64,000 bases of DNA from Acidobacteriota bacterium (lineage in GTDB: Bacteria; Acidobacteriota; UBA6911; RPQK01; JAJDTT01): NCBI GenBank assembly GCA_965217775.1, contig CBDCJH010000002.1, positions 672,001-736,000 of the forward strand, in the 5' to 3' direction. The notes beneath the pieces are model-generated. The model worked only from the letters and a program-made list of their open reading frames with translations. It was not told the origin of the DNA and made no database searches. Shown here in pieces: positions 21,522-57,228 of this stretch. The first letter of the stretch is position 1; every line of letters begins with the position of its first letter. A program made the position numbers and the translations under genes.

Positions 21522-23345
21522 CTACTCCTCAGACATCATTTCATCCCCGGAAGGCATCTCGACCTCCAGAGGAATCACCGGCAGCGTGGTGAAGACTTTC
21601 CTGTCTTCCAGCTCCAAGGCGACGGCTGTGAATTGTTGATCCCCAGGAGGCGCCATGCAGCGAACCGAACCCGTGAAATCCGAGGTATCGGTTTCTTCGA
21701 ATATCTGGTTGATAAATTGGGGCCTCTGACCGTTGGCCGGTAGGTCGACGGGTTGTTCTTCGAGTACTTCTCCACCCATCATCAATCGGCACGTGAGCTC
21801 CATTCGGGACTCGCTCAGATTGCGGAACGCCGCCCCGGTGTTGATCCCGCCAGCCACGCGGCGGGCCGGAAAGATGGCGTCCCGGACCGGCTGGCTGGCC
21901 CCGACGCCGGCCACGCCCGTGCCTTCAAGGTCGAAGCGCAGGACCCCACCGATCGGGCTGTCCGGAGCGTCGGAAACTACTTTGACCGATCCGACGACCA
22001 GATCTCCTAGCCCGTGGGTAGAAATCGTGAGCTCTCCCAGTGGGGGTATTCCATCCTGGACGGTCAGAGCCCCGTAGCTCTTGACTTCCAGGTTGTCCAT
22101 TACATCCACCACCGACGTCGGGTCGACGAGTTGGCCCATCTGGTCGTAGAAGTAGATGGCCGGCCGGACCGCCTTGGAGGCCGCGTTCACCACCACGATA
22201 TCGGAGGTGATGGGACCCCCGTTGGCGAAGTGCGCGAAGTCGAGAGCCACCTGGTTTCCCTTGTAGAAGCCGGAGCCGGCGACTACGGTCGCGCCGGCGT
22301 GGATCGGATAATCGTTCGGTAGTGTGAAGGTTTGGGCATAACCTACCTTGGCGGACCCGAATTCCTCATCCCCGTCGACTCCCGGATCGTCCCAGTAATA
22401 CTCAACATAGCCACTCTTTTCGGGGTCGACGGCAGCATCGATGAGAGCCTTGACGAACATGAATCCATTCCGGTCTTCCAACTCGTACTGGATCTGTTCC
22501 TCCTGGTCCGGACGCGCGCCGTGAAAGAGCACATTGCCGTCGGTCGTCATCAGGAACATGTAGGTGGAGCCGCTTCTCCAGTGTCCCCCTTCGTTCCTGT
22601 AGATGCTCGCCAATACGTCCAGATCGAAGCTCAATGTCGGCAGGGTCCTGATCGCCCAATCACCCGCCCCTTGGACGAAGGCCTTCAGCGTCTCCCGGTC
22701 CCGGACGTCGCTGGCGGACACCTCCGGGAGTTCAGGGCCGTCGTCAGTTCCATCTCCGGTGTCATCCTCCATACTCATCGCGTGGAGGTGCAAGCCGCCC
22801 ACCAGAACGAATGTCTGGCCGGGCGCCAAGGGATGGCCGGAGGTTATGGCGAAGCACTCCCTGGGACCCTCGACCTCGTCCGTCAGCGGGTCGTCCCACG
22901 AGTACTCGACGAATTTTTCCTCTTCCCCCCCTTCCATTCCGGGTTTCAACGCATCGATGATCTCTTTGACGACCATTTTCCCGTTGTCGTCTGCGGATTC
23001 GGACAGGTCCATTTCATCCAGACTCGGGTCCTCCAGACTCGGGTCCTCGCCGTGAAAAAACACGGAGCCGTCCGAATTCAGGATAACGAGGTACATGGAC
23101 TTGTAGTTCCAGTCCCCACCCTCTTCTCTCGCGTCCATCTGGAATTGGACGTAACCAGGCAAAGAGTTGATGGAGAGCACGTGCTCTTTCGCCGAAAGCA
23201 CGAAGGCCTTCAGTGTGTCCCGGTCCACCACCTGGCTGGCGGTGGTCCGATCTTCGTCGTCGGCAACAGCGGAGGGCATTGCACCGAAGAAGCCGGACAA
23301 TGTCAGCATAGTCCCCCAAAGGATCATCGATCTTGAAAAGTTCAT
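21522..23345 (-). CDS. exported protein with two single-Cache (sCache_2-like) domains and an uncharacterised C-terminal module
   Basis: Signal peptide; two repeats of DRxTLKAFV...W...Y.F..FHG...D.NG...VK.LIDA...VEY.WDDP; C-terminal FAHFANG...FTTLPVIP module. Confidence 0.8.
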   Translation of the reverse strand: MNFSRSMILWGTMLTLSGFFGAMPSAVADDEDRTTASQVVDRDTLKAFVLSAKEHVLSINSLPGYVQFQMDAREEGGDWNYKSMYLVILNSDGSVFFHGEDPSLEDPSLDEMDLSESADDNGKMVVKEIIDALKPGMEGGEEEKFVEYSWDDPLTDEVEGPRECFAITSGHPLAPGQTFVLVGGLHLHAMSMEDDTGDGTDDGPELPEVSASDVRDRETLKAFVQGAGDWAIRTLPTLSFDLDVLASIYRNEGGHWRSGSTYMFLMTTDGNVLFHGARPDQEEQIQYELEDRNGFMFVKALIDAAVDPEKSGYVEYYWDDPGVDGDEEFGSAKVGYAQTFTLPNDYPIHAGATVVAGSGFYKGNQVALDFAHFANGGPITSDIVVVNAASKAVRPAIYFYDQMGQLVDPTSVVDVMDNLEVKSYGALTVQDGIPPLGELTISTHGLGDLVVGSVKVVSDAPDSPIGGVLRFDLEGTGVAGVGASQPVRDAIFPARRVAGGINTGAAFRNLSESRMELTCRLMMGGEVLEEQPVDLPANGQRPQFINQIFEETDTSDFTGSVRCMAPPGDQQFTAVALELEDRKVFTTLPVIPLEVEMPSGDEMMSEE

Positions 23346-23409
23346 TTCGTTCACTCCGTTTCGAATGGTGCGGTCCATGGGCTTGACAAGACCTTTATAA
23401 CAACAAAAA

Positions 23410-23434
23410 GTCCGTGGCAAAAGCTGCCACGGAC
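23410..23434. repeat. perfect 10-bp inverted repeat matching the MITE ends
   Basis: GTCCGTGGCA-AAAGC-TGCCACGGAC; the arms match the termini of the 26485-26650 element. Confidence 0.7.
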
Positions 23435-23507
23435 GTCCGTCGAATCAGTGGGTCAGGCTGGCGTCGGCATGGCGTCGAGAGCCGATTCCTCCGACTCCAG
23501 GTAGAAT

Positions 23508-23535
23508 CGGGCAGGCCGACGCCACGGCCTGCCCG
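23508..23535. terminator. GC-rich hairpin, possible terminator of the pseudogene transcript
   Basis: CGGGCAGGCCG-ACGCCA-CGGCCTGCCCG, an 11-bp perfect stem without a strong U-tract. Confidence 0.35.
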
Positions 23536-23561
23536 GACTCAAATGATAGTTCTGCCTTCGT

Positions 23562-24577
23562 TTATTCCTCCGAAGCCATCTCCTCGTGCGAGCTCATGTC
23601 TCCGTCCAGCGGCACCACCGGCAGTGTGGTGAAGATACCGTTCATGATGTCCATCTCCACGGCCACGCCGGTGAACTCCTGCTCTCCCGGCGGCGCCATG
23701 CAACGGACCGACCCGGTGAAGTCGGACGTGTCGTGCTCGAACAGCTCGCTGATGAGCATGGCCCCCTGACCGTTGGCCGGCAGAGTGACCGGCTTCATTT
23801 CGATCATCTCGCCACCCATCGTCAGGCTGCAGGTCACCATCAACTCGGACTCGCTCAGGTTGCGGAGGGCCGCTCCCGTGTCAATGCCACCGGCTTGGCG
23901 GCGTACCGGGATTATGGCGTCCCGAAGCGGCTGGCTGGCTCCCACCCCGGCCACGCCGACGCCCGGAAAGTCAAATCTCAGGACTCCTCCGATGGGACTG
24001 TCGAGACCCTCGGTGACGACTTTCACCGAACCGGTCATGAGGTCTACCATACCATTCGTCGAAATGGTGACCTCTCCCAGGGACGGCAATTCCGACAGGA
24101 GGGCCAGAGCGCCGAAGTCCGTGGCATACAGATTCCCCATGACGTTCACCAACGATCCCGGGTCAATGAGCCCGCCGTCATTGTCATAGAAGTAGATGAG
24201 AGGCCGGATCGGCGTCGAAGCCAGGTTCACCAACACCACGTTGGAGCTGAAGGAGTCCCCGTTGCCGAAGTGGGCGAAGTCCAAGGCCATCTGGTTTCCC
24301 TTGTAGAAGCCGGAGCCGAAGATCACGGTCTGGCCCGCGAAGACGGAGGAATCATCAGGAAACGTGTACGATTCGGTGTAGCCGACCTTGGCGGAACCAA
24401 TGTCCTCGTCCCCTTCTACCGAGGGATCATCCCAGTCGTATTCGACGTATACCTTTTCCCGAGGTGGCCGCATCGATGAGGGCTTTCACGAATTTGAATC
24501 CGTTACGGTCCCGGCGCTCGATCTGAATGTGACCTTGCTGGTCCGGTCAAGCCCCGTGAAAGAGGACATACCCCTCA
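23562..24577 (-). pseudogene. truncated paralogue of the Cache/C-terminal-module protein
   Basis: GYVLFHGA*PDQ...DRNGFKFVKALIDAA contains an in-frame TGA and a frameshift near 24455, then continues YVEYDWDDP into an intact C-terminal module. The 5' part is missing. Confidence 0.85.
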
Positions 24578-24628
24578 TGGAATGCGGCTCCGGCACCGGC
24601 GCCGGCACCGAACTCCGTACGGTCCCGT

Positions 24629-26101
24629 TCACGAATCCTTCCTTGCGGACACCGCTTCCGACCCAAATCGCTCGGCGGCCTCCAGCGTCTCCCGGACATC
24701 GTCCCAGGTCGTGGTGTGGTTGACGATGCACATTCTGAGCGAAAAAGTCCCATGCAGGAGCGTCGAGGATATGAACGCCCGGTCTTCCCAGAAGACGCGC
24801 GCCAGCACGGTGCGGTTGATCTCTTTCAGCGAATTCTCGTCGATACCGCCGGCCGCCGGGTTGACCCGGAAGCAGACGATCCCCAGCGAAGCCGGGTTCA
24901 TGACCTCCAGAACCGGGCTCGCTTCGATGTATTCCTCGGCCCGAGCGGCCAACTCCATTCCCTTTGAAACGGCCTGGCGAAAGGCGTCCATGCCGAAGAT
25001 CCGGACCGAGACCCAGATCTTCAAGGCCCGGACCGACCGGCTCAATTGCAGGCCGCGGTCCGAGAAATTGGGGTGTTTCGCGCCCCAGATCGTGTCCTGC
25101 AGCATGTCGTGGGGGATCCGGAACGCGGTGTCGAGCGTCGTGGCATCCTTTACCAGGAGACAGCCCGCCTCGTAGGGTTGGAAGAACCATTTGTGCGCGT
25201 CCAGTCCGATGGAGTCGGCTCGCTCCATTCCGCGCAAAAGCTCTCTACCCCTTTCCGTGATCACCGCGAAACCGCCGTAGGCCGCATCGACGTGGAGCCA
25301 AAGGCCTTCCGCTTCGCAATAGTCCGCCATCTCGACCAGCGGATCGATGGCTCCGGTGCTGCCGGCCCCTGCGTTGGCGCACACCGCGATGGGATTGAAT
25401 CCGGCGGCGCGGTCGGCGTCCACCGCGCGCCGGAGGGCCTCCATGTCCAGCCGGAAGCGGTCATCGCTCGCCACCCTGCGGATGCAGTCAGACCGGATGC
25501 CGATGATCCTGGCCGCCCGGACCTGCGCGCTGTGACTCTGGTCGCCCATGTAGACCGTGGCGCGGCCGGGGTTGCCCGCGGCTTCTCGCGCCGCGACGAA
25601 GGCGTCCAGGCTGGCCGCAGAACCCCCGCTGGTCAGGAGCCCTCCCGCACTCTCGGGATAACCGACCCAGCGCCGGAACCACTCCAGGACCACCAGCTCG
25701 AGCTGGCTGGGACCGCTCGAGGTCAGCCAGGTGCATTGATTGACGTGATAACCGGCGGCCATGAAGTCGGCCACAACGCCGGGCCAGGTGGGCGACGACG
25801 GGATGAACCCGAAGAAACGAGGGTGATCGATACGCGCCGCCACCGGCAGGATGTCCCGGGCGGCCCGTTCAATGACCTGCAGTGCGGGCAGACCGGACTC
25901 GGGGGGATCTTCCAGGAGCTGATCGGCCAACTCCTGCCGGAACTCGCCGTCCCAGGCACCTTCTTCCGCCAGGGACTCGATTCGCTCCACGATGAGCTCC
26001 GCCGCCCGGCGGGCCAGGTCGAGCATGGCTCCGGGGGCCATCCGGAGTCCGTTCTGTTCAGTATCGAAATCTCCCGCAAAGGATTTCTTGTCGCTTTGCA
26101 T
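24629..26101 (-). CDS. group II pyridoxal-phosphate-dependent decarboxylase (AADC/DDC family)
   Basis: HPRFFGFIP, TSGGS, DQSHS, LHVDAAYGG, DAHKW (PLP lysine), LQLSR. Confidence 0.92.
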   Translation of the reverse strand: MQSDKKSFAGDFDTEQNGLRMAPGAMLDLARRAAELIVERIESLAEEGAWDGEFRQELADQLLEDPPESGLPALQVIERAARDILPVAARIDHPRFFGFIPSSPTWPGVVADFMAAGYHVNQCTWLTSSGPSQLELVVLEWFRRWVGYPESAGGLLTSGGSAASLDAFVAAREAAGNPGRATVYMGDQSHSAQVRAARIIGIRSDCIRRVASDDRFRLDMEALRRAVDADRAAGFNPIAVCANAGAGSTGAIDPLVEMADYCEAEGLWLHVDAAYGGFAVITERGRELLRGMERADSIGLDAHKWFFQPYEAGCLLVKDATTLDTAFRIPHDMLQDTIWGAKHPNFSDRGLQLSRSVRALKIWVSVRIFGMDAFRQAVSKGMELAARAEEYIEASPVLEVMNPASLGIVCFRVNPAAGGIDENSLKEINRTVLARVFWEDRAFISSTLLHGTFSLRMCIVNHTTTWDDVRETLEAAERFGSEAVSARKDS

Positions 26102-26484
26102 CGAATTTTATTACCTTTTCAGCATTTCTTCGATTCGGGCCACAACAATCCAACCAAGGGTGTATCAATGGACGTATTTTCCGGAACCGGCATTGCGAGA
26201 TATGGGAACTGGAGAGAAGGTGCCGCAACCCGTTGAATCGTTCCGATTGGTAAAGTTCTTACGAGTGAACGCTCTTGATTGCCCGAACCGAAAGACACGA
26301 ATACGCGAAATCAGGGTCATACTCCCCAATGGAGTGGTGTAGACAATCGGGGGTATGCATGGGCCCGAAAGTCCCCCTTTCAGTTCCAGTCCTGCGCCCA
26401 GTTATCTCGCGGATTCGATTGGACTCGGAGACACCTCTGGGTCTCCGGACGACTCCGCAATCTGTCCCCGGACCCTCAGTCGCT

Positions 26485-26650
26485 TTAACAGCCCGTGGCA
26501 AAAGTCGTCACGGCATTCGACCGTCCCTGCATCCCGGCGGACTGCGTTGCGACTCGGTCACATACTCCCGGTATGCTCCCTCATCGCGCCTTGTCCGGCG
26601 GGCGCAGGAACGGTCTCGGTGCTCGCGCGACTTTCACCACGGACTGTTAA
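26485..26650. mobile_element. MITE-like non-autonomous element (~166 bp)
   Basis: Imperfect terminal inverted repeats TTAACAGCCCGTGGCAAAAGTCG ... CGACTTTCACCACGGACTGTTAA, internal dyads, no credible ORF. Confidence 0.78.
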
Positions 26651-26730
26651 GTTAGAGTTCCGTTCCGTTGTTTCGGCCGATTTTTCGGGCCCATTGGCCC
26701 CGGGGTCAACCGGCCCGATGAGCCCAAACC

Positions 26731-27393
26731 CTACTCGGAGGGCTGATCGACGAAACGGATGTAGGGCTTGGGGGAATCCCAACCCTGAGGGTACTTTTCA
26801 CGGGCGGCGGCGTCCGAGACCGCAGGCAAGATGATGACCTTGTCCCCCTCGTTCCAATTCACGGGAGTGGCCACCTTGTGCTTGGCGGTCAACTGAACCG
26901 AGTCCAGCACCCGCAGCACCTCGTCGAAGTTGCGGCCCGTGCTCATGGGGTAGGTGATGGTCAGCTTGATCAGCTTGTCCGGTCCGATGACGAACACGGA
27001 TCGGACCGTGGCGTTGTCCATGGGGGTTCGGCCCTCGGACGTATTCCCGGCGTTCGCCGCCAGCATGCCGTAGTGCTTGGCGACGGCCAGCTCGGTGTCG
27101 GCGATGATGGGGTAGTTGGGGGCATGGCCGGTGGCGTCCCGGATGTCCTGCGCCCAGGCCCGGTGACTGTCCGCAGGGTCCACGCTCAACCCGATGATCT
27201 TGCAGTTGCGCTTGTCGAACTCCGGTTTGAGGCTGGCCATGTATCCCAATTCCGTGGTGCAGACCGGCGTGAAGTCCTTGGGGTGGGAAAAGAGAATCGC
27301 CCAGCCGTCGCCGATCCACTCATGGAAGTTGATGGGCCCCTGGCTGGTATCGGCCGTAAAATCAGGTGCGGTGTCTCCGACGGTAAGGGACAT
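26731..27393 (-). CDS. 1-Cys peroxiredoxin (Prx6 family)
   Basis: FSHPKDFTPVCTTE, GRNFDEVLR, ATPVNW. Confidence 0.95.
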   Translation of the reverse strand: MSLTVGDTAPDFTADTSQGPINFHEWIGDGWAILFSHPKDFTPVCTTELGYMASLKPEFDKRNCKIIGLSVDPADSHRAWAQDIRDATGHAPNYPIIADTELAVAKHYGMLAANAGNTSEGRTPMDNATVRSVFVIGPDKLIKLTITYPMSTGRNFDEVLRVLDSVQLTAKHKVATPVNWNEGDKVIILPAVSDAAAREKYPQGWDSPKPYIRFVDQPSE

Positions 27394-27493
27394 TGGATTC
27401 CTCCTAATGGACTGTAGGCAAACGAAATGACCGCCTCCAAGAATGGCCCAAAGCGGCCGCAAGTTCAACCGCGGGGGCGAGGAGCGGCGGCCG

Positions 27494-27557
27494 GGAGCGG
27501 CGACTTTCTTGTCGCCGATTCCGGGGGAGAAATGGGAGACTACAAGTCCCCCCTCCT
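27494..27557. repeat. pair of REP-like palindromes in inverted orientation
   Basis: GGAGCGGCGACTTTCTTGTCGCCGATT ... AATGGGAGACTACAAGTCCCCCCTCCT. Confidence 0.75.
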
Positions 27558-27572
27558 GATGATCCGGCGGGA

Positions 27573-28598: not shown

Positions 28599-28623
28599 GG
28601 ATCGTACTCCAAATTGACTACGC

Positions 28624-28740
28624 CATATTGACATATTGATTTATATATAATCGCATATAAATATATCAAAATATCATGACGTTTAATATTATATGCGTAT
28701 ATAAATTAATGCATAATTAAATACGTTAAATATTAATAGA
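28624..28740. promoter_or_regulatory. extremely AT-rich intergenic tract with dyads
   Basis: About 16% GC over 28631-28740 (manual count 18/110); CATATTGA twice; inverted pair CGCATATAA (28652) / TTATATGCG (28689). Confidence 0.5.
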
Positions 28741-28788
28741 TCGATAGAGATTCTCTTCCGTTCTCGTATTTCCAGTCACGAATCGTAA

Positions 28789-31877: not shown

Positions 31878-31906
31878 GTCCGGGGAGCGCTCCTGGTCCG
31901 GGGATG

Positions 31907-32845: not shown

Positions 32846-32879
32846 CGATTTCAGCTTCCGGGAGCGGTCGGCTCCGTCC

Positions 32880-34490: not shown

Positions 34491-34566
34491 GTCGATCGTC
34501 TCCGTATCCGTCCGGAAGAAAAGCAGTGGAGATCGTATTCGTTCGGGATTGGAGGCGCAAGAGCGT

Positions 34567-34763
34567 TAGGAGGGGGAACTGCCAGTCCCCCATTGGAGGG
34601 GCGACTTTCTTGTCGCCCACTGGGAGCCGGCGGCTTTCTTGCCGCCTGCTCTTCTTGCCGGAAAGCGTAGAGTGGGGACTCCGTCCCCCCTACCCCCCTG
34701 TTCGGCGACAAGAAAGTCGCCGCTCCACCCCCCTTGTTCGGCGACAAGAAAGTCGCCGCTCCA
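34567..34763. repeat. cluster of six REP-like palindromes (BIME-like), including a 36-bp tandem duplication
   Basis: Three units in one orientation (34567, 34595, 34622) and three in the other (34671, 34701, 34737); core GGCGACTTTCTTGTCGCC. Confidence 0.8.
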
Positions 34764-34772
34764 TGTCGCCGC

Positions 34773-35045: not shown

Positions 35046-35048
35046 GCC

Positions 35049-36392: not shown

Positions 36393-36497
36393 GGTCGTCC
36401 TCCTCGACCGCCATCCTACCAGTTGGATCACCCGTCTACGAATCTGAAGTCGTCCCCGGCTTGGCGACTTCTCGCTGGGATTGATAGAGTCTCAATC

Positions 36498-41853: not shown

Positions 41854-41867
41854 TTGCAAGGGTGTGT

Positions 41868-42007: not shown

Positions 42008-42083
42008 GGGGCTGTAGCTCAGTTGGAAGAGTACCTGAATGGCATTCAGGGGGTCGTGGGTTCGAATCCCATCAGCTCCACCA
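42008..42083 (+). tRNA. tRNA-Ala(GGC)
   Basis: GGGGCTG/CAGCTCC acceptor stem with a G3-U70 pair, anticodon arm CCTGA-ATGGCAT-TCAGG, GGTTCGAATCC T-arm and encoded CCA; 76 nt. Confidence 0.98.
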
Positions 42084-42501: not shown

Positions 42502-45500
42502 ATGAAAAAACGGGACTACCCATTAGGCATCGCGTCAACCTCGGGCGCCCGATGGCGTGGACTGCTCGGGGCTTTCGCGGTTATCTCCCTGCTGGTTGAG
42601 CCGATTCAGACCCAGCAACCACAAGCGGTGGCTGGCGGCGCCTTTGCGAGGAAGGCGGGGCCGGAGGACCCGGCCTTATGGCAGGAGTTCCGGTCCGCTG
42701 CCCGGGTGAGTGTGCGGGACGTTCGGAGGATTCCGGGAGGCGGCCCGTCCCGAGGCAGCGTCCTCCGGCAAACGGCTGCGATGCGCCGGACTCACGGTGT
42801 CGACGGCACCGGGATTGGGATCGGCGTGATCTCCAGTGGCGTAGCGCCGCTGGAGACCGGTGACGCACCCGACGACCTTCTGGACCGGGTGACGGTGCTG
42901 CCAGGGCAAGCAGGAGAGGGCGACGCCGGGATGGCGGCTCTCGGGACCCTCCGTGATCTGGCTCCGGGCGCCGAACTCTACTTCGCGACCGGGTTGGGTG
43001 GGCCGGCGCGGTTCGCGGCCAACGTCGAGGCGCTCTGCCGGGCCGGCGCGGACATCATCGTCGACGAGGTCTTCGACTTCCAGGAGACCATCCACCAAGG
43101 CGGCGTCAAGGCACAGGGGATCGCCCGAGCGGTGCGAGACGGCTGCGTTTATGTCTCTGCTGCAGGGGACCGGCCGGGTGCCGATTCGCGATCCGCCGCC
43201 CGGACGTGCGTGACCGCGACGACTCCGGATTTTTCGACCCTTTGCGGCAGTGCGGCCACACCGGTCCAAGCGTCGGCGCTGGCGGCTCTGATCCTGGAGG
43301 CTGCCGGCGGCCGCCACAGCGTCACGGCAGGAGAACTCCGCGCGGCAGTCTCGGGCGCGGCCCTTCGGATCGCGTCTCCGACCGCCGCGATTGAGGGCAC
43401 GAAACGACCAACGGTGAGCAAGATCGAGATGAGTTCGATTCCTCCGGACGACCGGGAGGTTTACGGCGTCGGCGACTCGATCGAAATCACGGTGACCTTC
43501 AGCGAGATCGTGAACGTGATCGGGACACCCCTTCTGGGGCTGGACGTGGGGAACGTCACCCGGCACGCGGTCTACACCGGTGGCACGGGAACGGCAGCAC
43601 TGACTTTCTCCTACTCCGTAGCCGAGGGCGACGAAGACACCGACGGAGTGAGTCTGGAGGCCGACAGCCTGTCCCTGGGTAACGGAGTGATCGAGGACGG
43701 TTCGGAAAATCCCGCGGTGTTGGGCCACGCGGGATCGGAGGATCAGGCCGGCCAGAGGGTGGACGGCATCAGGCCGTCGCTCGTGACCGGCGATGAGGCT
43801 ACCGTGACCGGGGCCAGACTGACGCTGAAGTATGACGAGCCGCTCGACCGGTCATCGGCGCCTCCGGCCGGGGATTTTAGAGTGACCGTCGGGGGCGAGG
43901 GACGGGAGGTCACCGCAGTCGCCGTGGCCGGGAGCACAGTGGCGCTGAAGCTGGCCTCGCCGGTGGGTCGGGGCGAGCCGGTGACGGTGAGCTACGCCGC
44001 GCCCGCGCCAGGAACGGCGGAGCCGATCCGGGACCCGGCCGGCAACGAATCCACGGCCTTCAGCAACCAGTCAGTGGCAAACCGGACCGGTGAGGCAACG
44101 GATCAGGCCGGGCGGAAACTGTCAGCGAAGACCGCAAAGCAGATACAGGCCATCCTGGCCGCGAAGGCGCAGCGGACCCCCGCCCAGAAAAAGGTGAGTT
44201 CGGAGCTTCTGGACGCGCGGCGGATGGCCGGCGGGGTCATTGTCTCGGACAAGGCCGGCAAACGGGCGGCTCCGGGCACAGACCCCTTGAAGGAGCCGGT
44301 GACGGTGGACATCCGGGCGGACGTGACGCCTGAGGTCCTGGACCGCATCCGGAGCCTGGGGGGCACCGTGATCGACAGCGTGCCGCGGTACCGGTCCATT
44401 CGGGCCCGGCTTCCCTTGGGCGCCGTAGAGACATTGGCGGAGCTCGACGCGGTTCAATCGATCCGCACCGCCGACAAAGCGATGACACGCGGCCCAGTGA
44501 AACGCCTCCCATCGGCCCTCCGGGCGGTCGCCGGAGATCGACCCGTGACCCGCAAGGTCAACACGACCCAAGGCGACGTCGCCCACCAGGCGAAATTGGC
44601 GCGCGACACCCACAAGGTAGACGGCACCGGCATCGGGATTGGAGTCCTCTCGGATGGGGTCGGCTCTCTGGGGGCGCGGCAGGCTTCGGGCGACCTGCCG
44701 GACCGGGTGACGGTGTTGCCGGGAGAAGCGGGTGAGGGGTACGAAGGGACGGCGATGCTGGAGATCGTCCATGACCTGGCCCCGGGTGCGGAACTTTACT
44801 TCGCCACGGCGCTCGGTGGGCAAGCCCGGTTTGCAGCCAACATCGAGGCGCTCTGCGAGGCTGGAGCGGACGTCATCGTCGACGATGTCGGCTATCTTTT
44901 CGAAGGCGCGTTTCAGGACGACATCGTTGCAAAAGGGGTGAACGTAGCGGTCGCCGACGGCTGCTATTTCTTCTCGGCCGGCGGCAACAACGGCAATCTG
45001 AACGACGGCACCGCAGGGGTCTGGGAGGGCGACTACGCTGCGGGGAGTTCCATCACTCTGGACGGAACTACGTTTGTGGCGCACAACTTCGGCGAAGGCG
45101 TCATCCAGAACGAGATCACGCAGGAAAGCGATTTCGGGACCTACATTCTCCAGTGGGCCGATCCGCTGGAGGCCTCGGGTAACGATTACGACCTCTTCCT
45201 GATCGACGAGCACGGCAACGTCCTGGACAAGTCGACCTCCACCCAAGACGGCACACAGGATCCGTTCGAAACCGTCTATTCGGATGAAGCGGATCATGCC
45301 GGTGCGCGGCTCGTCATCGTCAAGACCTCCGGTTCGAATCGGTACCTCCGTCTGGACACCCTGGGAGGCCAATTGGCCGTCGCGACCGCCGGCAACCTTT
45401 ACGGCCACTCGGCAGCGGAGAACGCGATCGCGGTTGCTGCAGTCGGCGTCCACACCGCTGGTGGGACCGGCGGCGTCTTTGACGGAACCGAGTCGGTCCG

Positions 45501-51500: not shown

Positions 51501-54500
51501 CGCGTTTAGGGGCAGTGCGGTGGATATGACTCTCTCCTCCGCGGTGGCGCATTGGGAGACGGGGATCCGTGTGAGCTACACGGTCCCGACCGGGATGGGG
51601 GCGATGCCGATTCAGGACCGGGCCGGCAACGACGCGGACGGACTGAGCAGCGTGCCGGTGATAAACGAGACGCCGGACCGTATCCCTCCCACGGTCACTT
51701 CCATCGAGATCACCTCGGATCCGCCGGACGGCCGGGATGTCTACGGCATCGGCGAGGAGATCGAGGTGACGGTGACGTTCAGCGAGACGGTCACGGTGTC
51801 CGGGAACCCGGGAGTGACGCTGAAGGTGGGGGCACGGGATCGATCGGCGACCTACGAGAGCGTCACGGGGGCGGTGGTCGTGTTTGCCTACACGGTGGCC
51901 GTCAACGACAGCGACACGGACGGGGTGAGCATCGAGGCGGGCAGCCTGTCGGGCGGGACGATTCGGGACATCGCCAGGAACAATGCGGTCCGGACCCACT
52001 CGGCGGTAGCGGCCGATACGGGACAGCAGGTGGACGGCATCAAACCCGTACTGGCGACGACCGACGGGGCGGTGGCGAACGGAACGATGCTGACGCTGGC
52101 CTACAGCGAGCCGCTGAATTCGTCGTCGGAGCCGGACAACGACGCCTTCTCCGTGACGGGAGGGAACGAGACGCGAACGGTCACCAACGTCCAGGTAAGC
52201 GGGAGTGCAGTGGAGCTGACCGTGGATCCGGCGGTGGAGCATGGAGAGACGGGGCTGCGGGTGAGCTACACGATCCCGACGGGAACGGGAGCGAACCCGA
52301 TCCAGGACCAGGCGGGCAACGACGCGGACCGGTTGAGCAACCGGAGCGTCACCAACGTCACGGGAGACACGACGGGACCGGCGGTGCAGACGATGAGGAT
52401 CACCTCAAGTGCGGTTTCGGATTCAACTTACGCCAGAGACGATTCCATCGAGGTGACCGTGACGTTCAACGAGACGGTGGTGGTGACGGGTACACCGCGG
52501 TTGACGCTGAACGTAGGCGGACGGAATCGAACGGCGGAGTACCTGAGTGTCTCGGGCTCGGCCGTGAAGTTCGAGTACAAGGTCGTCTCGGGCGATCGGG
52601 ACCGGGACGGGGTGAGTATCGACGCGGACAGCCTGTCGCGGGGCGGGGGGACGATCCGCGACGGAGCGCGGAATGACGCGACCCTGACTCACGCGGGGGT
52701 GGCGGCCGATTCGCGGCACAAGGTGGACGGAGTGCGCCCGATGCTGGCCACGACGGACGGGGCGGTGGCGAACGGAACGACATTGACGCTGGCCTACAGC
52801 GAGCCGTTGAACTCGTCCTCGCGACCGGCGGCGAGCGCCTTCACCGTGACGGGGGGCAGTGAGACGCGAACGGTGACGCGGGTGTCGGTGAGCGGGAACG
52901 CCGTTTTCCTGACGTTGAGCCCGGCGGTGCAAGACGGAGAGTTCGGCCTCGGTTTGAGCTACCAGCCGGGATCGAATCCGATCCGGGACGTGGTGGGCAA
53001 CGCGGCGGACGAGTTGAACAACGAACCGGTCACGAACCGGACGGGAGACACGGCGGGGCCGAAGGTCGAGACGGTGAGGATCACGTCGAACGCGGGGTCG
53101 GATCAGACCTATGCCATCGGCGAGACCATCGAAGCGACAGTGGCATTCGACGAGACGGTGTTGGTGACAGGCACGCCGCGCCTGACGTTGAACGTGGGAG
53201 GCCGGAGCCGGACGGCGAACTACCAGGACGTCACGGGGGCGGCCGTGAGGTTCGCATACCAGGTGGTCTCGGGCGACACGGCCGCGTATGGGGTGAGGAT
53301 CGATGCGAACCGCCTGTCGGGCGGGACGATCCGCGACGGCGCTCAGAACAACGCCGTGCTGAACCACGCTCCGGTGGCGGCCGATACCCAACACCAGGTG
53401 GACGGGGTCAAGCCGACGCTGGCGACCAGCGACGGAGCGGTGGCGAACGGAACCACGTTGACCCTGGTCTACGGCGAGCCATTGGATACCTCTCCGCTGC
53501 CGTCGACGGACGACTTCACCGTTACGGGAGGGAGCGAGACCCGGACGGTCACGTTGGTTCGGGTCGACGGGAGTGCCGTTTTCCTGACGCTGAGTTCGGC
53601 AGTAACGGACGGAGAGAGCAGCCTGCGAATGAACTACGAGCCGGGATCGAACCCGATCCAGGACACGGCCGGCAACGATACGGATCGGTTGAGCAACCGA
53701 AGCGTCGCGAACAAGACGGGAGACACGTCGGGCCCGACGGTGTCGACGGTGCGGATCACGTCAAGTGCGGGGTCGGACCGGACCTACGGGAAGGACGAGA
53801 CCATCGAAGTGACGGTGACGTTCAACGAGACGGTGGTGGTGACGGGGACGCCCGAAGTGACCCTGAACGTCGGCGGCCGGAACCGAACGGTGGAGTATCG
53901 GAGCGTCTCGAACCGGGCGGTGAAGTTCACCTACCGGGTGGTGACGGGCGACGAGGACGAGGGCGGCGTGAGCATCGAGGCGAACCGGTTGTCGCGAGCC
54001 GGTGGGACGATCCGGGACGGGGCGGGCAATGACGCCACCTTGGACCATACGGCCGTGGCGGCCAGTACGAGCCACCAGGTGGACGCGGTGGCTCCGGCCC
54101 TGGCCCTCACCGACCCGGCGGTGGTGAACGGGGCGACGCTGACGCTGACCTACCACGAACCGCTGAATACGTCCTCCCGGCCGGCCGCGAGCGACTTCAC
54201 CATCGCTGGGGGCAACGAGACGCGAACCGTGACCGCGGTCCGGATCGGCGGGAGCACGGTGCAGTTGACGCTGAGTCGCCGGGCGGAACACGCAGAGATG
54301 GGGATCCGGGTGAGCTACGAGCGGCGATCGAATCCGATCCGGGACCGGGTGGGCAACGACGCCGAGGGGTTCACAGATACGTTCGTAGACAACCAGACGC
54401 CGGACACGACGGCGCCGTCGATCGAAGGGATCGAGCTCAGTTCGGACCCGGGGACGGACGAGACGTACGCTATCGGAGACCTGATCTCGGTGACGGTGCG

Positions 54501-57228
54501 TTACGACGAGACGGTGACGGTGGACACGGTGCGGGGGACGCCGACGCTGGATCTTCTGGTGGGGACCTGGAGGAAGCGGGCCAGCGCCAGTGTGGGACCG
54601 GACCGACCGGCCGTGGTGTTCGTCTACACGGTGGAGAAAGGGGACGAGGACGAGGATGGAGTGAGCGTCCCGCGGGGGAGCATCGCGCTCAACGGCGGGA
54701 AGATCCTGGACCTGTCGGACAATGCGGCGGCGCGCAATTATGAGGCGCTGGAGGCGCAGGCGGACCACAGGGTGGATGGGGCGGAACCGGAACTGGAAGA
54801 CGTTACGGTGTACGGGTCGCGGGTGGCACTGACCTACGACGAGGCGCTGGATGAGGGCTCGATACCGTCGAATTCCGACTTCGAGGTGACGGTGGAGGGG
54901 AATGATCGGCCGGTGGTTCAGGTCGAGGTCAGAGGCAGCATCATCATCTTGACGCTGGCCTCAGCGGTGGGGGCCGGCGAAACAGTAACGGTGAGATATA
55001 CGCCGGGGTTGGACCCGATCCAGGACAAGGTGGGGAATGGGACCGAGGTGTTGACCAACCGACGGGCCGACCCGCCGCTGGTGACCATCGAAGCCAGGCA
55101 GGGATCGGAGACGGTGACGGAAGGCACGACGGTGGAGTTCACGCTGACGCGGGGGCCGCCTACGGAAGCGTCATTGACGGTGAACGTGGAGGTCACCGAA
55201 AGGGGGTCGGTGATCGAGACGTCGGGGTCATACGAGCCGCCGGAAGAAGTCGTTTTCCAGGCCCGGCAGGAGGCGGCGACGCTGTCGGTGCTGACCGATG
55301 ATGACGACGTGGCCGAATCCGCCGGAAGAGTCACCGCCCGGCTGCAGCCAGGAGACGAGTACCGGCTGGGACCGACGTCGACGCAGAGCGCCCAGGTGAC
55401 GGTTCAGGACAACGAAGTCGCTCCCCCTCCGCCACCACCCCCACCGCCGCCTCCTCCGCCTCCTCCACCGCCTCCTCCGCCACCGCCCCCACCGCCACCG
55501 CCCCCACCGCCTCCTCCTCCGCCCGCCCAGACGGCGCCCACGGCGCCCTTGAACCTGCAGGTGGAGGCCGGGGAGAGTGAGGTGACGCTCTCCTGGGAGG
55601 TGCCCGAGAGCGACGGCCGCTCGGTCATCATCGATTACGAGGTCCGGATCGACCGGACGGGCGAGTGGATCTCCACCGGGTCGGCGGACCGGACTCACAC
55701 CGTGAGCGGACTGACCAACGGCCGGACCTACGTCTTCGAAGTGCGAGCGGTGAACGCAGTCGGTCCGAGTCCTCCGTCCGACCCAGTCGAGGCCACGCCC
55801 ATAGCGGACGAGGTGATCCTGGAATTCGCCCATTTCGGAAATGGGTATTCGAGCAACGACGTGCTGATCACCTCCGACTTGGTCTTGGTGAACGTCGGTG
55901 AGGATGAGATCCGTCCCGTCGTCTATTTCCATGGCCGGCCGGGAGATCTCTTGGCGGCCGAATCATTGGTGGATTTGGGGAACGATCTGAAAATTCAAGA
56001 GGACGGAGGACTGTCCACCGGCACGGCAGTGCCCCCGTTGGGCGAACTGACGATCTCGACCCACGGACGGGGAGAAGTGGTCACGGGATCGATCCAGGTC
56101 GTGTCGGATGGACCCATGGGCGGCGTGGTGCGCTTCGACATCCCCGGAATCGGGGTCGCCGGCGTGGGCGCCAGCGAACCCACCGGGGACGCCCTGTTCC
56201 CGGCTCGGCGGCAGGCGGGAAGGATCCGCACGGCGGCGGCGATCCACAACTTGGGGATGGAGGCCGTGGACGTGCAGTGCCGGTTGATGAAAAACGGAAT
56301 GGTGCTGGAAGAGGGGGAGATTCCGTTGAGCGCCAACGGTCAGGACGCCAAGTTTCTCGAAGAACTGTTCACCGTGACAGACACGACGGACTTCGTGGGG
56401 TCGGTGCGCTGTACGGTCCCGGCAGGCGAGTCGTTTACGGGCGTGGCGGTGGAGATGGATGACGGCAACGGGATCTTCACCACCCTGCCGGTGGTCCCGG
56501 TGAATCCTCAGGGCTCCCAAGGGGAGGGAACGACTCTGACTTTCGCGCACTTCGCCAATGGGACTTCCGACGACGGGACCTTGATCACGTCGGGTCTGGT
56601 GCTGGTGAACGTGGCCGCTTCGACGGCCCGTCCCGCCATCTACTTCTACGATCAGCGCGGCGAACTGCTGGAGCCGGAATCGACGGTGGACGTCGGAGAG
56701 GATCTTCGAGTCCGAGAGGACGGAGGACTGACGGTCCGAACGGCCATGGCTCGACTGGGCGAGCTGACGGTCTCGACGCATGGCCGGGGAGCGGTGGTGA
56801 CGGGATCGGTGCAAGTGGTGTCGGCGGGGGCTATGGGCGGTGTCCTGCGTTTTGACATCCCCCGCGTCGGCGTTGCCGGGGTGGGCGCGAGCCGACCCAC
56901 GAAGGACGCGCTGTTCCCGGCGCGCCGGCAAGCGGGAGAGGTCCGCACGGCGGCGGCGATCCGCAACCTGGAAGCGGAACGGACGACGGTTCGCTGTTGG
57001 CTGATGCGCGGGGGGTTGGAACTGGAATGGGTGGACATCCATCTCGCCGGCAACGGGCAGCACGCCGGGTTCATCGAAGAGCTGTTCACACGAACGGACA
57101 CGACGGACTTCGTGGGTTCGGTGAGATGCAGGGCGCCCGGGGAAGAGATGTTCACGGGAGTTGCGGTGGAACTGGACACCGGCAACCGGATCTTCACCAC
57201 GCTACCGGTGGTTCCAATTCAACCGTGA
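42502..57228 (+). CDS. giant (4908 aa) secreted/surface protein: S8-like protease, GLUG-repeat modules, FN3, SwmB/Ig-like repeats, Calx-beta-like domain, poly-Pro tract, two C-terminal modules
   Basis: Uninterrupted ORF with a signal-like N-terminus. It contains GIGVLSDG/EGTAMLE/GVSSAAPH, VGGLVG repeats, LTLxYxExL...DxAGN SwmB-like units, a 34-Pro run, an FN3 domain (YVFEVRAVN) and a tandem FAHF...FTTLPVVP module. Confidence 0.9.
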   Translation: MKKRDYPLGIASTSGARWRGLLGAFAVISLLVEPIQTQQPQAVAGGAFARKAGPEDPALWQEFRSAARVSVRDVRRIPGGGPSRGSVLRQTAAMRRTHGVDGTGIGIGVISSGVAPLETGDAPDDLLDRVTVLPGQAGEGDAGMAALGTLRDLAPGAELYFATGLGGPARFAANVEALCRAGADIIVDEVFDFQETIHQGGVKAQGIARAVRDGCVYVSAAGDRPGADSRSAARTCVTATTPDFSTLCGSAATPVQASALAALILEAAGGRHSVTAGELRAAVSGAALRIASPTAAIEGTKRPTVSKIEMSSIPPDDREVYGVGDSIEITVTFSEIVNVIGTPLLGLDVGNVTRHAVYTGGTGTAALTFSYSVAEGDEDTDGVSLEADSLSLGNGVIEDGSENPAVLGHAGSEDQAGQRVDGIRPSLVTGDEATVTGARLTLKYDEPLDRSSAPPAGDFRVTVGGEGREVTAVAVAGSTVALKLASPVGRGEPVTVSYAAPAPGTAEPIRDPAGNESTAFSNQSVANRTGEATDQAGRKLSAKTAKQIQAILAAKAQRTPAQKKVSSELLDARRMAGGVIVSDKAGKRAAPGTDPLKEPVTVDIRADVTPEVLDRIRSLGGTVIDSVPRYRSIRARLPLGAVETLAELDAVQSIRTADKAMTRGPVKRLPSALRAVAGDRPVTRKVNTTQGDVAHQAKLARDTHKVDGTGIGIGVLSDGVGSLGARQASGDLPDRVTVLPGEAGEGYEGTAMLEIVHDLAPGAELYFATALGGQARFAANIEALCEAGADVIVDDVGYLFEGAFQDDIVAKGVNVAVADGCYFFSAGGNNGNLNDGTAGVWEGDYAAGSSITLDGTTFVAHNFGEGVIQNEITQESDFGTYILQWADPLEASGNDYDLFLIDEHGNVLDKSTSTQDGTQDPFETVYSDEADHAGARLVIVKTSGSNRYLRLDTLGGQLAVATAGNLYGHSAAENAIAVAAVGVHTAGGTGGVFDGTESVRTSNSDGPRRIFFEPDGTPVTAGNFSSTGGDLLQKPDLAAATCVRTATPGFSIFCGVSSAAPHAAAIGALMLEAAGGPGNLTQSELVTGMTGASLDIEATGVDRDSGAGIVMAPGAVDAVDVAAADRNGAPTEMGTLPDRTFGPGDAAVTIDLSTKFTDPDSDPLTYEALSSDDRVEVVVTDSDLTVTPRLPSAATVLVRAVDPDGLGAVRDFSVSVALGNRDYDGDDDNLIDVSNLAQLDAIRYDRNGDGVVDGMNWQPYYDAFEEAAESMGCPDRCIGYELRSDLDFDTDGDGGVDSDDTYWNGGDGWEPIGDSSDPYTAIFEGNSQSIANLFIDRASDDGVGLFGYVDRGLFGLAEILDVDLVAVDVAGEDLVGGLAGEVKAALVVGSRATGQVSGGDDVGGLVGWSDSLIADSFAAVQVSGTEAVGGLVGNQFDGWIIRSYANGDVSGDYAVGGLVGSSNDPIRACYATGRVSGEGVRRTGVDNCEFGGVGGLVGNACSLIRASYATGTVSGNAVVGGLAGAVSSEVRFRYSYWDLETSGLRVGVGENDLNSNGLIDGSETQMVGLAGQTTANLQAPTDYDGIYENWNLDVDLDGKPDTPWDFGTSSQYPVLATDLNRNGRSTWQEFGYQVRPGLTLTAATTDGQAQVDLSWSAVSTSPWSPAPDVSYDLIRDDGTMEETLAEGTTARQHTDTDVTTGNTYTYRVTALLDSGEVARSRPVSVIVGEASQSPVAVGALEDLTLRVGEGTKDVDISGAFMDPESDTLTYGASSSATGVATVTRSAARLTITPVASGRTTITATATDTSGSNTAATQRFTVEVWSATEVDYDSDEDGLIEIATLAQLDAVRHDLDGDGTPVANGKTSYDAAFADAVERMGCSRLGGCVGYELASDLDFDTDGDGDVDSGDDYWNGGDGWIPIGGDGSIFTSAAFAAANPFLAIFDGNGHTVSNLFIDTDNPILVGLFGYSFIGIGNLGLIDVDVTGAELTGGLVGFNRGLILGCYVAGRVSAADNVGGLAGMNFSDGAIRGSYSTAYVSGDDDVGGLVGDNRNEISASYATGRVSGNTDAGGLVGNNKSAGEITASYATGPASGDANVGGLVGSDEGGTITNSYWDTRTSGLRSGSAGTGRTTAQLQSPTSYGGIFRNWNLDLYGDDDKDDLWDFGTSSQYPVLSIDVDGNDDTTWEEFGYQLRKGPVVTATSTTRSPDPAQVVVTWTEVAVNSEWMPAPTVSYTVTRVDGDTVETLAEDLSVRTYTDSDVTADEDYTYQVAAVVFGGEATRSARVTVKARGNGAPMPVGYLPDRTLRVGDSAMTEFSGAFQDPEGDAIIYGISSSDTSVVLVTRSGTRLTMTPVGEGDAVITVTATDDGSNRSSTQEFKVVVLSTSTTDYDTDDDGLIEISNLEQLDAVRHDLDGDGLPSSGYATYIAAFSGAGDELACGGLFGCVGYELRADPDFDTDNSGAVDRGDNYWNSGAGWVPIGDSSSSFAAIFEGNARTITNLFIDGSGNDVGLFGETTSSAVIRNLEMVAVQVTGTDQVGGLVGSNNGAVSGCFATGKVSGDDDVGGLIGANLSDGAVTVSYSTVHVTGDDRVGGLIGSNSGVVTAAYATGRVVGDFEAGGLIGRNTGDVNISYATGLVSGRSTIGGLVGRNSGGGRITDSYWDSDTSGRTTGSYGQPQNTSALQMPTDTSGIYQNWNVDLNGDSMNDDPWVFGTSSQYPVLSVDTNGVGGATWQEFGEQIRNSPALMATPALGQVTLTWSAVSNVTYNLYRTSGSTVEIISENTSSRAYVDTDVTAGATYVYQVAAVINSGEASRSMRVSVVVPIPDVTDPTVSKVEITSDPGSDSTYALRDVIEVTVTFSEDVFVTGSPELTLRVGDEDRTADYQSVTDEEMLFRYRVDTGDVDTNGVSIAANSLSVNGGTIEDGSDNEADPDHRALGNNSRHKVDGIRPELAPTRGAVVNGTTLTLTYTEPPDSTSMPPSSAFFVSGGASSRTVSGVAFRGSAVDMTLSSAVAHWETGIRVSYTVPTGMGAMPIQDRAGNDADGLSSVPVINETPDRIPPTVTSIEITSDPPDGRDVYGIGEEIEVTVTFSETVTVSGNPGVTLKVGARDRSATYESVTGAVVVFAYTVAVNDSDTDGVSIEAGSLSGGTIRDIARNNAVRTHSAVAADTGQQVDGIKPVLATTDGAVANGTMLTLAYSEPLNSSSEPDNDAFSVTGGNETRTVTNVQVSGSAVELTVDPAVEHGETGLRVSYTIPTGTGANPIQDQAGNDADRLSNRSVTNVTGDTTGPAVQTMRITSSAVSDSTYARDDSIEVTVTFNETVVVTGTPRLTLNVGGRNRTAEYLSVSGSAVKFEYKVVSGDRDRDGVSIDADSLSRGGGTIRDGARNDATLTHAGVAADSRHKVDGVRPMLATTDGAVANGTTLTLAYSEPLNSSSRPAASAFTVTGGSETRTVTRVSVSGNAVFLTLSPAVQDGEFGLGLSYQPGSNPIRDVVGNAADELNNEPVTNRTGDTAGPKVETVRITSNAGSDQTYAIGETIEATVAFDETVLVTGTPRLTLNVGGRSRTANYQDVTGAAVRFAYQVVSGDTAAYGVRIDANRLSGGTIRDGAQNNAVLNHAPVAADTQHQVDGVKPTLATSDGAVANGTTLTLVYGEPLDTSPLPSTDDFTVTGGSETRTVTLVRVDGSAVFLTLSSAVTDGESSLRMNYEPGSNPIQDTAGNDTDRLSNRSVANKTGDTSGPTVSTVRITSSAGSDRTYGKDETIEVTVTFNETVVVTGTPEVTLNVGGRNRTVEYRSVSNRAVKFTYRVVTGDEDEGGVSIEANRLSRAGGTIRDGAGNDATLDHTAVAASTSHQVDAVAPALALTDPAVVNGATLTLTYHEPLNTSSRPAASDFTIAGGNETRTVTAVRIGGSTVQLTLSRRAEHAEMGIRVSYERRSNPIRDRVGNDAEGFTDTFVDNQTPDTTAPSIEGIELSSDPGTDETYAIGDLISVTVRYDETVTVDTVRGTPTLDLLVGTWRKRASASVGPDRPAVVFVYTVEKGDEDEDGVSVPRGSIALNGGKILDLSDNAAARNYEALEAQADHRVDGAEPELEDVTVYGSRVALTYDEALDEGSIPSNSDFEVTVEGNDRPVVQVEVRGSIIILTLASAVGAGETVTVRYTPGLDPIQDKVGNGTEVLTNRRADPPLVTIEARQGSETVTEGTTVEFTLTRGPPTEASLTVNVEVTERGSVIETSGSYEPPEEVVFQARQEAATLSVLTDDDDVAESAGRVTARLQPGDEYRLGPTSTQSAQVTVQDNEVAPPPPPPPPPPPPPPPPPPPPPPPPPPPPPPPPPPAQTAPTAPLNLQVEAGESEVTLSWEVPESDGRSVIIDYEVRIDRTGEWISTGSADRTHTVSGLTNGRTYVFEVRAVNAVGPSPPSDPVEATPIADEVILEFAHFGNGYSSNDVLITSDLVLVNVGEDEIRPVVYFHGRPGDLLAAESLVDLGNDLKIQEDGGLSTGTAVPPLGELTISTHGRGEVVTGSIQVVSDGPMGGVVRFDIPGIGVAGVGASEPTGDALFPARRQAGRIRTAAAIHNLGMEAVDVQCRLMKNGMVLEEGEIPLSANGQDAKFLEELFTVTDTTDFVGSVRCTVPAGESFTGVAVEMDDGNGIFTTLPVVPVNPQGSQGEGTTLTFAHFANGTSDDGTLITSGLVLVNVAASTARPAIYFYDQRGELLEPESTVDVGEDLRVREDGGLTVRTAMARLGELTVSTHGRGAVVTGSVQVVSAGAMGGVLRFDIPRVGVAGVGASRPTKDALFPARRQAGEVRTAAAIRNLEAERTTVRCWLMRGGLELEWVDIHLAGNGQHAGFIEELFTRTDTTDFVGSVRCRAPGEEMFTGVAVELDTGNRIFTTLPVVPIQP

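Follow-up and report, generated by a model that had tools for sequence, protein, structure and literature searches.

An unannotated C-terminal module of exported acidobacterial proteins is probably a divergent branch of the ASRAH/DUF5719 superfamily and may act as a glycan-binding anchor

TM1070 and the transducer of the sensory rhodopsin from Anabaena (ASRT) define the ASRAH superfamily (De Souza, Iyer and Aravind 2009; PMC2739507). That paper describes ASRAH domains as eight-stranded sandwiches with a predicted sugar-binding cleft to which the dimer interface contributes, and gives as their hallmarks a nearly invariant Asn that ends strand 2 and a conserved Trp that starts strand 1. It also reports that TM1070 is a tetramer and that the extracellular versions are invariably dyads or tetrads, and it predicts ligand binding from bound ethanediol and from gene context. 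Here we analyze a stretch of 64,000 nucleotides from the genome of an Acidobacteriota bacterium (the window; contig CBDCJH010000002.1, positions 672,001 to 736,000), in which unrelated exported proteins end in the same module. We conclude with good confidence that this module, which lacks annotation, belongs to the ASRAH/DUF5719 superfamily as a divergent branch. The function we favor, tentatively, is that it anchors exported proteins non-covalently to one polysaccharide that the cell itself carries on its surface or in its matrix.

The window carries four copies of the module, of which two lie in tandem in the gene of a giant protein (Table 1). The original prediction had located all four, and a single start had to be moved, from 23605 to 23610. 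Their alignment spans ~235 columns, over which copies 2, 3 and 4 are 63, 52 and 55% identical to copy 1; the mean column identity is 70% and ~90 columns are invariant, including two Cys (C158 and C202) that had been predicted to be conserved throughout. A profile built from the four copies recovers each of them with E values of 1e-125 to 1e-138, far above chance. As had been predicted, the cargoes of the two intact carriers are unrelated: one matches the Pfam families dCache_2 (E 2.7e-19) and sCache_2 (E 2.6e-15), and the other contains seven SWM_repeat domains, fn3 and Glug, with a subtilase match (Peptidase_S8) that stays under the cut-off (20.2 against 21.8 bits). Both start with a hydrophobic, signal-like N-terminus, as judged by a Kyte-Doolittle heuristic and, for the Cache carrier, by an ortholog with the same Met start. 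The third carrier had been called a pseudogene, which does not stand, as its open reading frame (ORF) is intact. It comprises the last ~60 Cache residues, the module and an acidic tail, and lacks a signal peptide. Since near-identical truncated forms recur in relatives (P0253, with 52 member sequences, and P0268), we regard it as a 5'-truncated paralog for which decay is not proven.

No Pfam or NCBIfam family matches the module copies of the window. To this extent the family is unnamed, as first thought, but relatives do exist. A PDB sequence-profile search returned nothing for a 49-sequence alignment of the family (A2) and an irrelevant match at E 0.27 for another alignment (A3). The AlphaFold2 model built on A2 is confident (pLDDT 91.3, pTM 0.85) and all-beta, and its two sandwiches comprise 8 and 8-9 strands, respectively; an alignment of four sequences had given a poor model (pLDDT 60.7). 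Foldseek found nothing useful for this model in the PDB (best E 1.2e-3, TM ~0.2). An exhaustive comparison with VIA-align superimposed the second half of the module (model residues 124-234) on TM1070 (1nc7_A) with a Z score of 13.4 and a root-mean-square deviation (rmsd) of 2.3 Å over 105 of 116 residues, and on ASRT (2ii7_A) with a Z score of 10.3 and an rmsd of 2.8 Å over 95 aligned residues, the next structural match reaching only Z 6.6; a second search had the same top match. Both halves keep the Asn of strand 2 (528 of 534 non-gap copies for the first, 624 of 636 for the second), which closes model strands 18-26 and 140-148.

A second line of evidence links the module to DUF5719 (PF18986), whose gathering cut-off is 26.2 bits. 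A subfamily encoded in the same genome (L106, G000:C2:1887577-1889658) matches the module profile with a probability of 100% and E 1.3e-45, and four proteins of this type score 24.7-25.9 bits on DUF5719 over ~150 residues. A relative from the same order, which the module profile detects at E 6.8e-52, passes the cut-off (36.6 bits, E 3.6e-9), and DUF5719-positive proteins occur in 14 of the 251 genomes examined, one of the 14 being unpublished (G024). Detection is reciprocal, as the module profile finds seven DUF5719-positive acidobacterial proteins, and the nearest annotated clusters of the ESM Atlas are labeled DUF5719 and DUF5719/ASRT. With members scoring from 24.7 to 36.6 bits and the window copies not matching at all, the family straddles the edge of the DUF5719 model. 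Positions 38-135 of that model align to the second half of one relative and positions 62-213 to both halves of the L106 type; this overlap indirectly supports the view that both halves are ASRAH repeats. DUF5719 itself probably corresponds to the actinobacterial family of cell-surface lipoproteins with two ASRAH domains described in PMC2739507.

Several results weigh against this placement. The first half of the module matches only generic sandwiches and carbohydrate-binding modules (CBMs), with Z scores of at most 6.5 (the best, the cellulosomal CBM 5fu2_B, has an rmsd of 2.8 Å over 83 aligned residues), and when the two halves were compared with hhalign they aligned in register, not significantly (P 0.055 and 0.057). 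The Trp hallmark of ASRAH domains is not kept: the strands LDFAHF and AIFPARR carry Phe or other residues. The ASRT family PF07100 matched none of the window proteins (E<=1), none of the 49 alignment members (E<=10) and nothing in the whole genome, in a search with a positive control in Thermotoga maritima. Finally, none of the window copies matches DUF5719, and among the 49 alignment members one does (E<=10), a divergent sequence at E 0.0035. The placement comes near to a condition that the original prediction had set for its own refutation, a clear match to a characterized catalytic or ligand-binding domain, although the sugar binding of ASRAH domains is itself a prediction.

We observed further sequences at the margins of the family. 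L106 and its relatives P0271-P0390 form a sister subfamily without the Cys pair; it terminates zincin-like proteins of ~576 aa (HExxH, weak Matrixin match) that are highly conserved across many metagenome contigs. Two further ORFs of this genome, L128 (G000:C2:1787540-1790668; 1049 aa) and L129 (G000:C2:5924387-5927899; 1017 aa), match DUF5719 below threshold (19.5 and 18 bits) and escape the module profile; they may be still more distant ASRAH-type proteins. Our literature search returned no paper on DUF5719, only the 2009 paper as relevant to ASRAH, and none combining Acidobacteriota, sponges, eukaryotic-like proteins and a C-terminal domain. No paper was found that covers the present branch; the 2009 paper does not, and its supplementary table might list acidobacterial members.

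To determine how widely the module is used, we ran its profile over all 38,329 ORFs of 80 aa or more, read from stop to stop, in the 6.43-Mb genome (2 contigs), counting matches with E<1e-20 as strong. We obtained 51 strong copies in 29 ORFs and one weaker copy. Two copies are present in 22 of the 29, adjacent in 21 and separated by NHL repeats in one, which doubles the two-sandwich dyad to four sandwiches. In 26 of the 29 carriers the last copy ends 0-6 residues from the stop, typically with ...FTTLPVVPIQR*, and the proteins end 2-4 residues after FTTLPVVP; the exceptions are one fragment and two full-length trypsin/CARDB proteins. A hydrophobic, signal-like N-terminus was recognized by the same heuristic in 24 of the 29; of the remaining five, four are short fragments and one is an ORF whose start is unclear. 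Altogether the carriers take up 70,089 codons, 3.3% of the genome. Their cargoes include giants of up to 6268 aa with SWM_repeat, fn3 and Big_5 domains accompanied by reprolysin, Calx-beta, GLUG, cadherin, Spondin_N, GSDH, arylsulfotransferase or PPDK_N, as well as three pure leucine-rich repeat (LRR) proteins, an NHL propeller, trypsin with CARDB, and Cache. In the giants, fn3 followed by the module pair is the usual C-terminal cassette, and the same junction is found in 13 giant paralogs. The giant carriers are clustered on the minus strand, six in a row within 92 kb (G000:C2:2527446-2619972) and three within 33 kb (G000:C2:24099-56993), and have near-identical N-termini and fn3-module cassettes, which together suggest recent tandem gene duplication and cassette shuffling.

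The search was extended to a library of 1.84 billion protein cluster representatives, of which 2105 matched at E<=1e-3 and 491 at E<=1e-30. Among the best 149, two copies are present in 126, 122 are terminated by the module and 27 have tails of more than 15 residues. The assertion that the module always occupies the extreme C-terminus therefore holds in the window but neither in the genome nor in the library. What does stand is a cargo-independent module, nearly always C-terminal, on proteins with signal-like N-termini. A sample of 42 of the 149 representatives, taken as every third, was inspected for domain content: sulfatase, M14 carboxypeptidase, PPC, cadherin-like and other cargoes are added, fn3 is present in 24 and no Pfam family in 10. 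Among the 120 short relatives that a word-index search listed, none is named and only one has a precomputed Pfam domain (NHL).

The nearest genomes are metagenome-assembled genomes (MAGs) whose titles read Acidobacteriota, Terriglobia or 'Candidatus Aminicenantes'. When the phylum was sampled evenly, the module was found in 49 of 401 genomes, a count that includes one unpublished genome (G049): it is present in all 27 genomes of the same order, in 7 of 10 others of the same class, and in scattered families beyond. Judging from these matches, a single class of Acidobacteriota accounts for essentially the whole family. Outside the phylum, a single 'Latescibacterota' MAG matched, and 2 of 33 genomes of that MAG's phylum have one carrier each, at E 1e-102. 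Both carriers are nearly identical to acidobacterial ones and one lies on a contig of ~7 kb; we read them as mis-binning or recent transfer.

The conserved residues of the module coincide with a predicted pairing surface. Homodimer prediction, run three times, scored a median of 0.67, whereas the best of three controls reached 0.00. It passes a mark that 20 of 30 solved one-chain pairs had reached, against 1 of 23 proteins solved as single chains. At least 69% of the contacts are common to the runs, and the partner pLDDT is at least 86. The predicted symmetric interface comprises residues 23-27, 72-79, 103-109, 116-121, 130-132, 161-165, 197-201, 217 and 222-233, which are the most conserved motifs over 696 distinct copies (LGELT, GGVLRF, GVAGVG, FP, GSVR, E217 and FTTLPV.P), and the conserved R108, R133, R134, N147 and E216 lie at or near it. 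In the tandem pairs, the A copy is closer to the A copy of another protein than to any other B copy in 113 of 125 cases. An ancient specialization of A and B was considered and rejected: no column separates them at 70%, and the best clade joins 48 B copies with 7 A copies. Because A copies resemble A copies and no fixed difference between A and B exists, the pair seems to travel as a unit without a fixed division of labor. The two Cys are located in strands 3 and 6 of the second sandwich, and 611 of 647 copies have either both or neither. This pattern fits an extracytoplasmic disulfide, and a C158-C202 bond is plausible.

Taking these results together, we propose that the module would be a dyad of two ~110-residue ASRAH-type beta-sandwich domains, and that two dyads would pack into a four-domain unit; this dyad-dyad pairing is a feature of the predicted model. 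In carriers with a tandem, the packing would occur within one chain, A and B folding back on each other, while single-module proteins such as the Cache carrier would achieve it by homodimerization. The four-domain unit would bind a carbohydrate, as proposed for other extracellular ASRAH proteins, and its ligand would be a single polysaccharide, common to all carriers, from the envelope or matrix of the cell itself, that is, the O-chain of the lipopolysaccharide (LPS), a capsule or an exopolysaccharide (EPS). A single shared envelope ligand appears most likely because a near-identical cassette ends 29 unrelated Sec-exported proteins. The cassette would then act as a non-covalent anchor by which the cell retains cargoes as different as enzymes, binding proteins and giant repeat proteins on its surface. 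We favor the envelope anchor because one cassette on ~30 unrelated exported proteins is the pattern of SLH, CWB2 and LysM, and because ASRAH clefts are predicted sugar sites. What the data show is the family with its spread, position and cargo diversity, the fold of the second half and the sequence link to DUF5719; sugar binding, the identity of the ligand and the surface location are inferred. The original prediction had spoken of an export, S-layer-anchoring or outer-membrane attachment tag; anchoring to the surface or matrix is still the best reading of it, but the dedicated translocon or sortase that it envisaged found no support.

Other observations tell against an anchor of this kind and should be considered. 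In two full-length carriers the pair lies mid-protein and is followed by 386 or 1662 residues, which suits a binding domain and not a terminal tag. The signal peptides were judged by a hydropathy heuristic. The sugar binding of ASRAH domains is itself a prediction made in 2009 (PMC2739507), and the ligand here is putative. The dimer prediction had been supplied with the module's own alignment, and its success may stem from a memory of the solved TM1070/ASRT tetramers, to which the module is alike; the model may see a TM1070-like assembly, which is not proof that module proteins bind. The passage of proteins of 5000 residues across the outer membrane is unexplained under every reading. Moreover, the order enzyme, fn3, module is equally typical of substrate-targeting CBMs.

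This last point leads to the main rival of the envelope anchor, which we consider unlikely: a lectin or CBM-like cassette that binds an external glycan (sponge host matrix, prey or substrate) and directs enzymes and adhesin-like proteins to it, without holding them on the producer's own surface. The fold and family evidence is the same for both readings. Layouts with a catalytic domain, fn3 and the module are common (sulfatase, M14, reprolysin and GSDH), the best neighbors of the first half are cellulosomal CBMs, internal module copies exist, eukaryote-like LRR, cadherin, fn3 and NHL repeats abound in the carriers, and an RNA-library run labeled 'sponge metagenome' contains exact pieces of this DNA. 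However, the presence of one module type on 29 unrelated proteins, Cache and pure LRR proteins included, is the pattern of an envelope anchor, whereas substrate-targeting CBMs come in many substrate-matched families, and a lectin would not need so nearly invariant a C-terminal placement.

The habitat bears on this alternative. At least half of the sampled words of the window were found in 16 sequencing runs from 9 studies, and two metatranscriptome libraries labeled 'sponge metagenome' contain ~10% of them. One of these (X17) holds exact pieces (55000-55088 and 57175-57400) and the other only pieces that are 90-95% alike; two runs guessed to be RNA also contain short contig pieces, and a further exact piece (55563-55713) is in X20. 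Most of the pieces are 90-95% alike and thus derive from paralogs or relatives. The pieces fit a sponge-associated lineage, and many members of the module-bearing class appear to live with sponges; as contig pieces they do not show transcription.

A sorting signal for a lineage-specific outer-membrane translocon or sortase-like enzyme, by analogy with the C-terminal domain (CTD) of the type IX secretion system (T9SS) or with PEP-CTERM, is quite unlikely in our view. It would account for a cargo-independent module at the extreme C-terminus with a sharp protein end 2-4 residues past FTTLPVVP, for the signal-like N-termini and for the lineage restriction (27 of 27 genomes of the order against 49 of 401 in the phylum), and the T9SS CTD is likewise a beta-sandwich. 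Against it stand the size of the unit (230-460 residues), its duplication and predicted self-pairing, the internal position in two carriers, the tails of more than 15 residues in 27 of the best 149 representatives, and the fact that homologous domains sit elsewhere, including internal arrays in DUF5719-positive proteins. We also looked for the machinery. Within 3 kb on either side of 69 related loci, ORFs of 120 aa or more include no recurrent gene, the real clusters having at most 10 members in at most 7 loci; large flank clusters that had appeared were rejected, as they were made solely of shadow frames over the module. Around both carriers of the window we found ordinary metabolic and housekeeping genes and no translocon or sortase candidate. 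No exosortase (PF09721) matched in the genome, in a search whose positive control did match. Por_Secre_tail (PF18962) and SprA_N (PF14349) had no genome match either, yet these two also matched in 0 of 14 control genomes. The ...FTTLPVVPIQR ends of the carriers include neither a hydrophobic helix nor a PEP motif. The co-occurring translocon or sortase that had been anticipated was thus not detected among the recurrent neighbors of these loci, and binding, rather than being sorted, is the most likely mode of action of the module.

It is very unlikely that the paired dyads serve protein-protein association, in an S-layer-like lattice or in oligomers, with no glycan ligand. The homodimer prediction passes its mark, conserved residues concentrate in the predicted interface, TM1070 is a tetramer (PMC2739507), and L106-type proteins weakly match the S-layer family Slr4 (23.8-24.6 bits against a cut-off of 25). 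Nevertheless, pairing of a tandem is most simply intramolecular and yields no lattice, the conserved R108, R133, R134, N147 and E216 suggest a polar ligand site, and the Slr4 matches mostly cover the region upstream of the module. We dropped the Slr4 lead, as the matches are sub-threshold and the accessible text of PMC7821379 gave no domain information. A peptidoglycan anchor by which the carriers, or else just their C-terminal end, would stay periplasmic is highly improbable: PMC2739507 ties ASRAH tetrads fused to muramoyl-alanine amidase to peptidoglycan, the carriers combine Sec-type N-termini with no recognizable outer-membrane export device, and Cache and protease cargoes would be at home in the periplasm, but carriers of 3000-6000 residues with cadherin, fn3, SWM, LRR and Calx-beta domains are typical of extracellular proteins, and no amidase cargo occurs in the 29 carriers of the genome or in the 42 sampled relatives.

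The features of the window on which this analysis is based are collected in Table 1.

Table 1. Module copies and module-bearing genes of the window, with positions counted from its first base.
Feature	Position	Strand	Remarks
Module copy 1	21570-22250	(-)	ORF residues 391-617; two beta-sandwich halves; profile E 2.8e-138
Module copy 2	23610-24290	(-)	Profile E 1.2e-134
Module copy 3, position A of tandem	55813-56499	(+)	Profile E 9.6e-125
Module copy 4, position B of tandem	56533-57219	(+)	Profile E 5.3e-126
Exported double-Cache protein, one module	21522..23420	(-)	ORF 632 aa as listed
5'-truncated Cache-carrier paralog	23562..24473	(-)	303 aa; no Pfam family
Giant exported protein, 4908 aa	42502..57228	(+)	Signal-like N-terminus, two subtilase-like regions, seven SWM repeats, GLUG, 34-Pro linker, fn3, module pair
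fn3 domain just upstream of module pair	55543..55794	(+)	Residues 4348-4431

The Cache carrier probably starts at the Met at residue 26 of its ORF (~23345), which matches ortholog P0128; both this ortholog and P0125 share its architecture. It has two Cache domains and a signal peptide by the heuristic, and no Pfam match to a signaling output domain. Its appearance is that of a soluble, exported protein for ligand binding, with the module as its tether. An acidic tail of 15 residues follows the module in the Cache carrier (21525-21569 (-), ...SGDEMMSEE) and in the truncated paralog (23565-23609 (-), ...SHEEMASEE). This tail is limited to Cache-type carriers, is kept in the orthologs P0125, P0253 and P0268 and is absent from giant carriers.

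The giant protein stops 3 residues past the FTTLPVVP of copy 4. Its two subtilase-like regions share the motif DGTGIGIG (42802-42825 and 44620-44643 (+); residues 101 and 707), and its protease part looks divergent or degenerate because of the low Peptidase_S8 score. An uninterrupted run of 34 prolines (55423-55524 (+)) separates the repeat region from the fn3-module cassette. The window has a sole Rfam match, a tRNA-Ala (GGC) gene (42008-42083 (+)) located 419 bases upstream of the gene for the giant protein. Elsewhere in the window we found genes for a Fic-domain protein (1183-2745 (-)), a Polbeta-type nucleotidyltransferase (58285-58740 (-)) and a Schlafen/AlbA_2-HATPase_c_4 protein (59402-60688 (-)); genes of these three types, here near the carriers, are typical of toxin-antitoxin or defense islands.

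The placement in ASRAH/DUF5719 gives ~30 proteins of this genome and more than 2000 public clusters a testable function, pairing and glycan binding, and the module offers a handle for predicting the surface-exposed proteome of an uncultured acidobacterial lineage. In practical terms, the placement could lead directly to a revised Pfam model that covers this branch. Should the ligand prove to be a polysaccharide of the cell itself, diderm bacteria would have a new principle of anchoring; should it prove to be a glycan of the host, the cassette would be an adhesion device that symbionts share. A bolder version of the anchor, which we regard as doubtful, is that paired ASRAH dyads are the docking unit of a class-specific surface display, with one envelope glycan as the receptor for ~30 proteins per cell. 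If that were true, the unit would display eukaryote-like repeat proteins of 3000-6000 residues that are thought to mediate host contact, and the system would be the diderm counterpart of anchoring by SLH to the secondary cell wall polymer (SCWP), built from a domain so far known only from a predicted sugar sensor of the cytoplasm and from a lipoprotein of actinobacteria.

Finally, the module can be compared with the described systems. The T9SS CTD and PEP-CTERM are tags of ~25 to ~100 residues that are removed by dedicated, genome-encoded machinery. Like them, the module is cargo-independent, extreme C-terminal on Sec-exported proteins and lineage-restricted; unlike them, its unit is 230-460 residues long and no machinery was found, the T9SS searches having had silent controls. 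With fn3-linked CBMs it shares the layout of catalytic domain, fn3 and beta-sandwich, its first half being nearest to cellulosomal CBMs (Z 6.5), whereas one module type serves non-enzymatic cargoes too, the dyad or tetrad is obligatory and no CBM family matches by sequence. SLH and CWB2 act in monoderm walls. The module resembles SLH, CWB2, LysM and the O-antigen-binding domain of RsaA as a repeated module on many unrelated exported proteins, which is a functional analogy only: their folds are unrelated, no Pfam family matches the module (SLH in particular matched neither the window proteins nor, at E<=10, the 49 alignment members), and their binding to defined polymers is experimental while the ligand of the module is putative. 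DUF5719 has a two-domain secreted form, divergent members of the module family score near or above its cut-off, and detection is reciprocal. In contrast to DUF5719, the module dyad is a C-terminal cassette on many cargoes and not a lipoprotein with N- and C-terminal extensions of its own, and the window has no WhiB/glycosyltransferase neighborhood. ASRT-like proteins are small, cytoplasmic and stand-alone, whereas the module ends large exported proteins, has a conserved Cys pair, and differs from ASRAH domains in having neither a PF07100 sequence match nor the Trp hallmark. What it shares with them is the eight-stranded sandwich, with a second half that superimposes on TM1070 at Z 13.4, the Asn of strand 2, a dyad unit that is usually doubled to a tetrad, and a predicted pairing as in the TM1070 oligomer.

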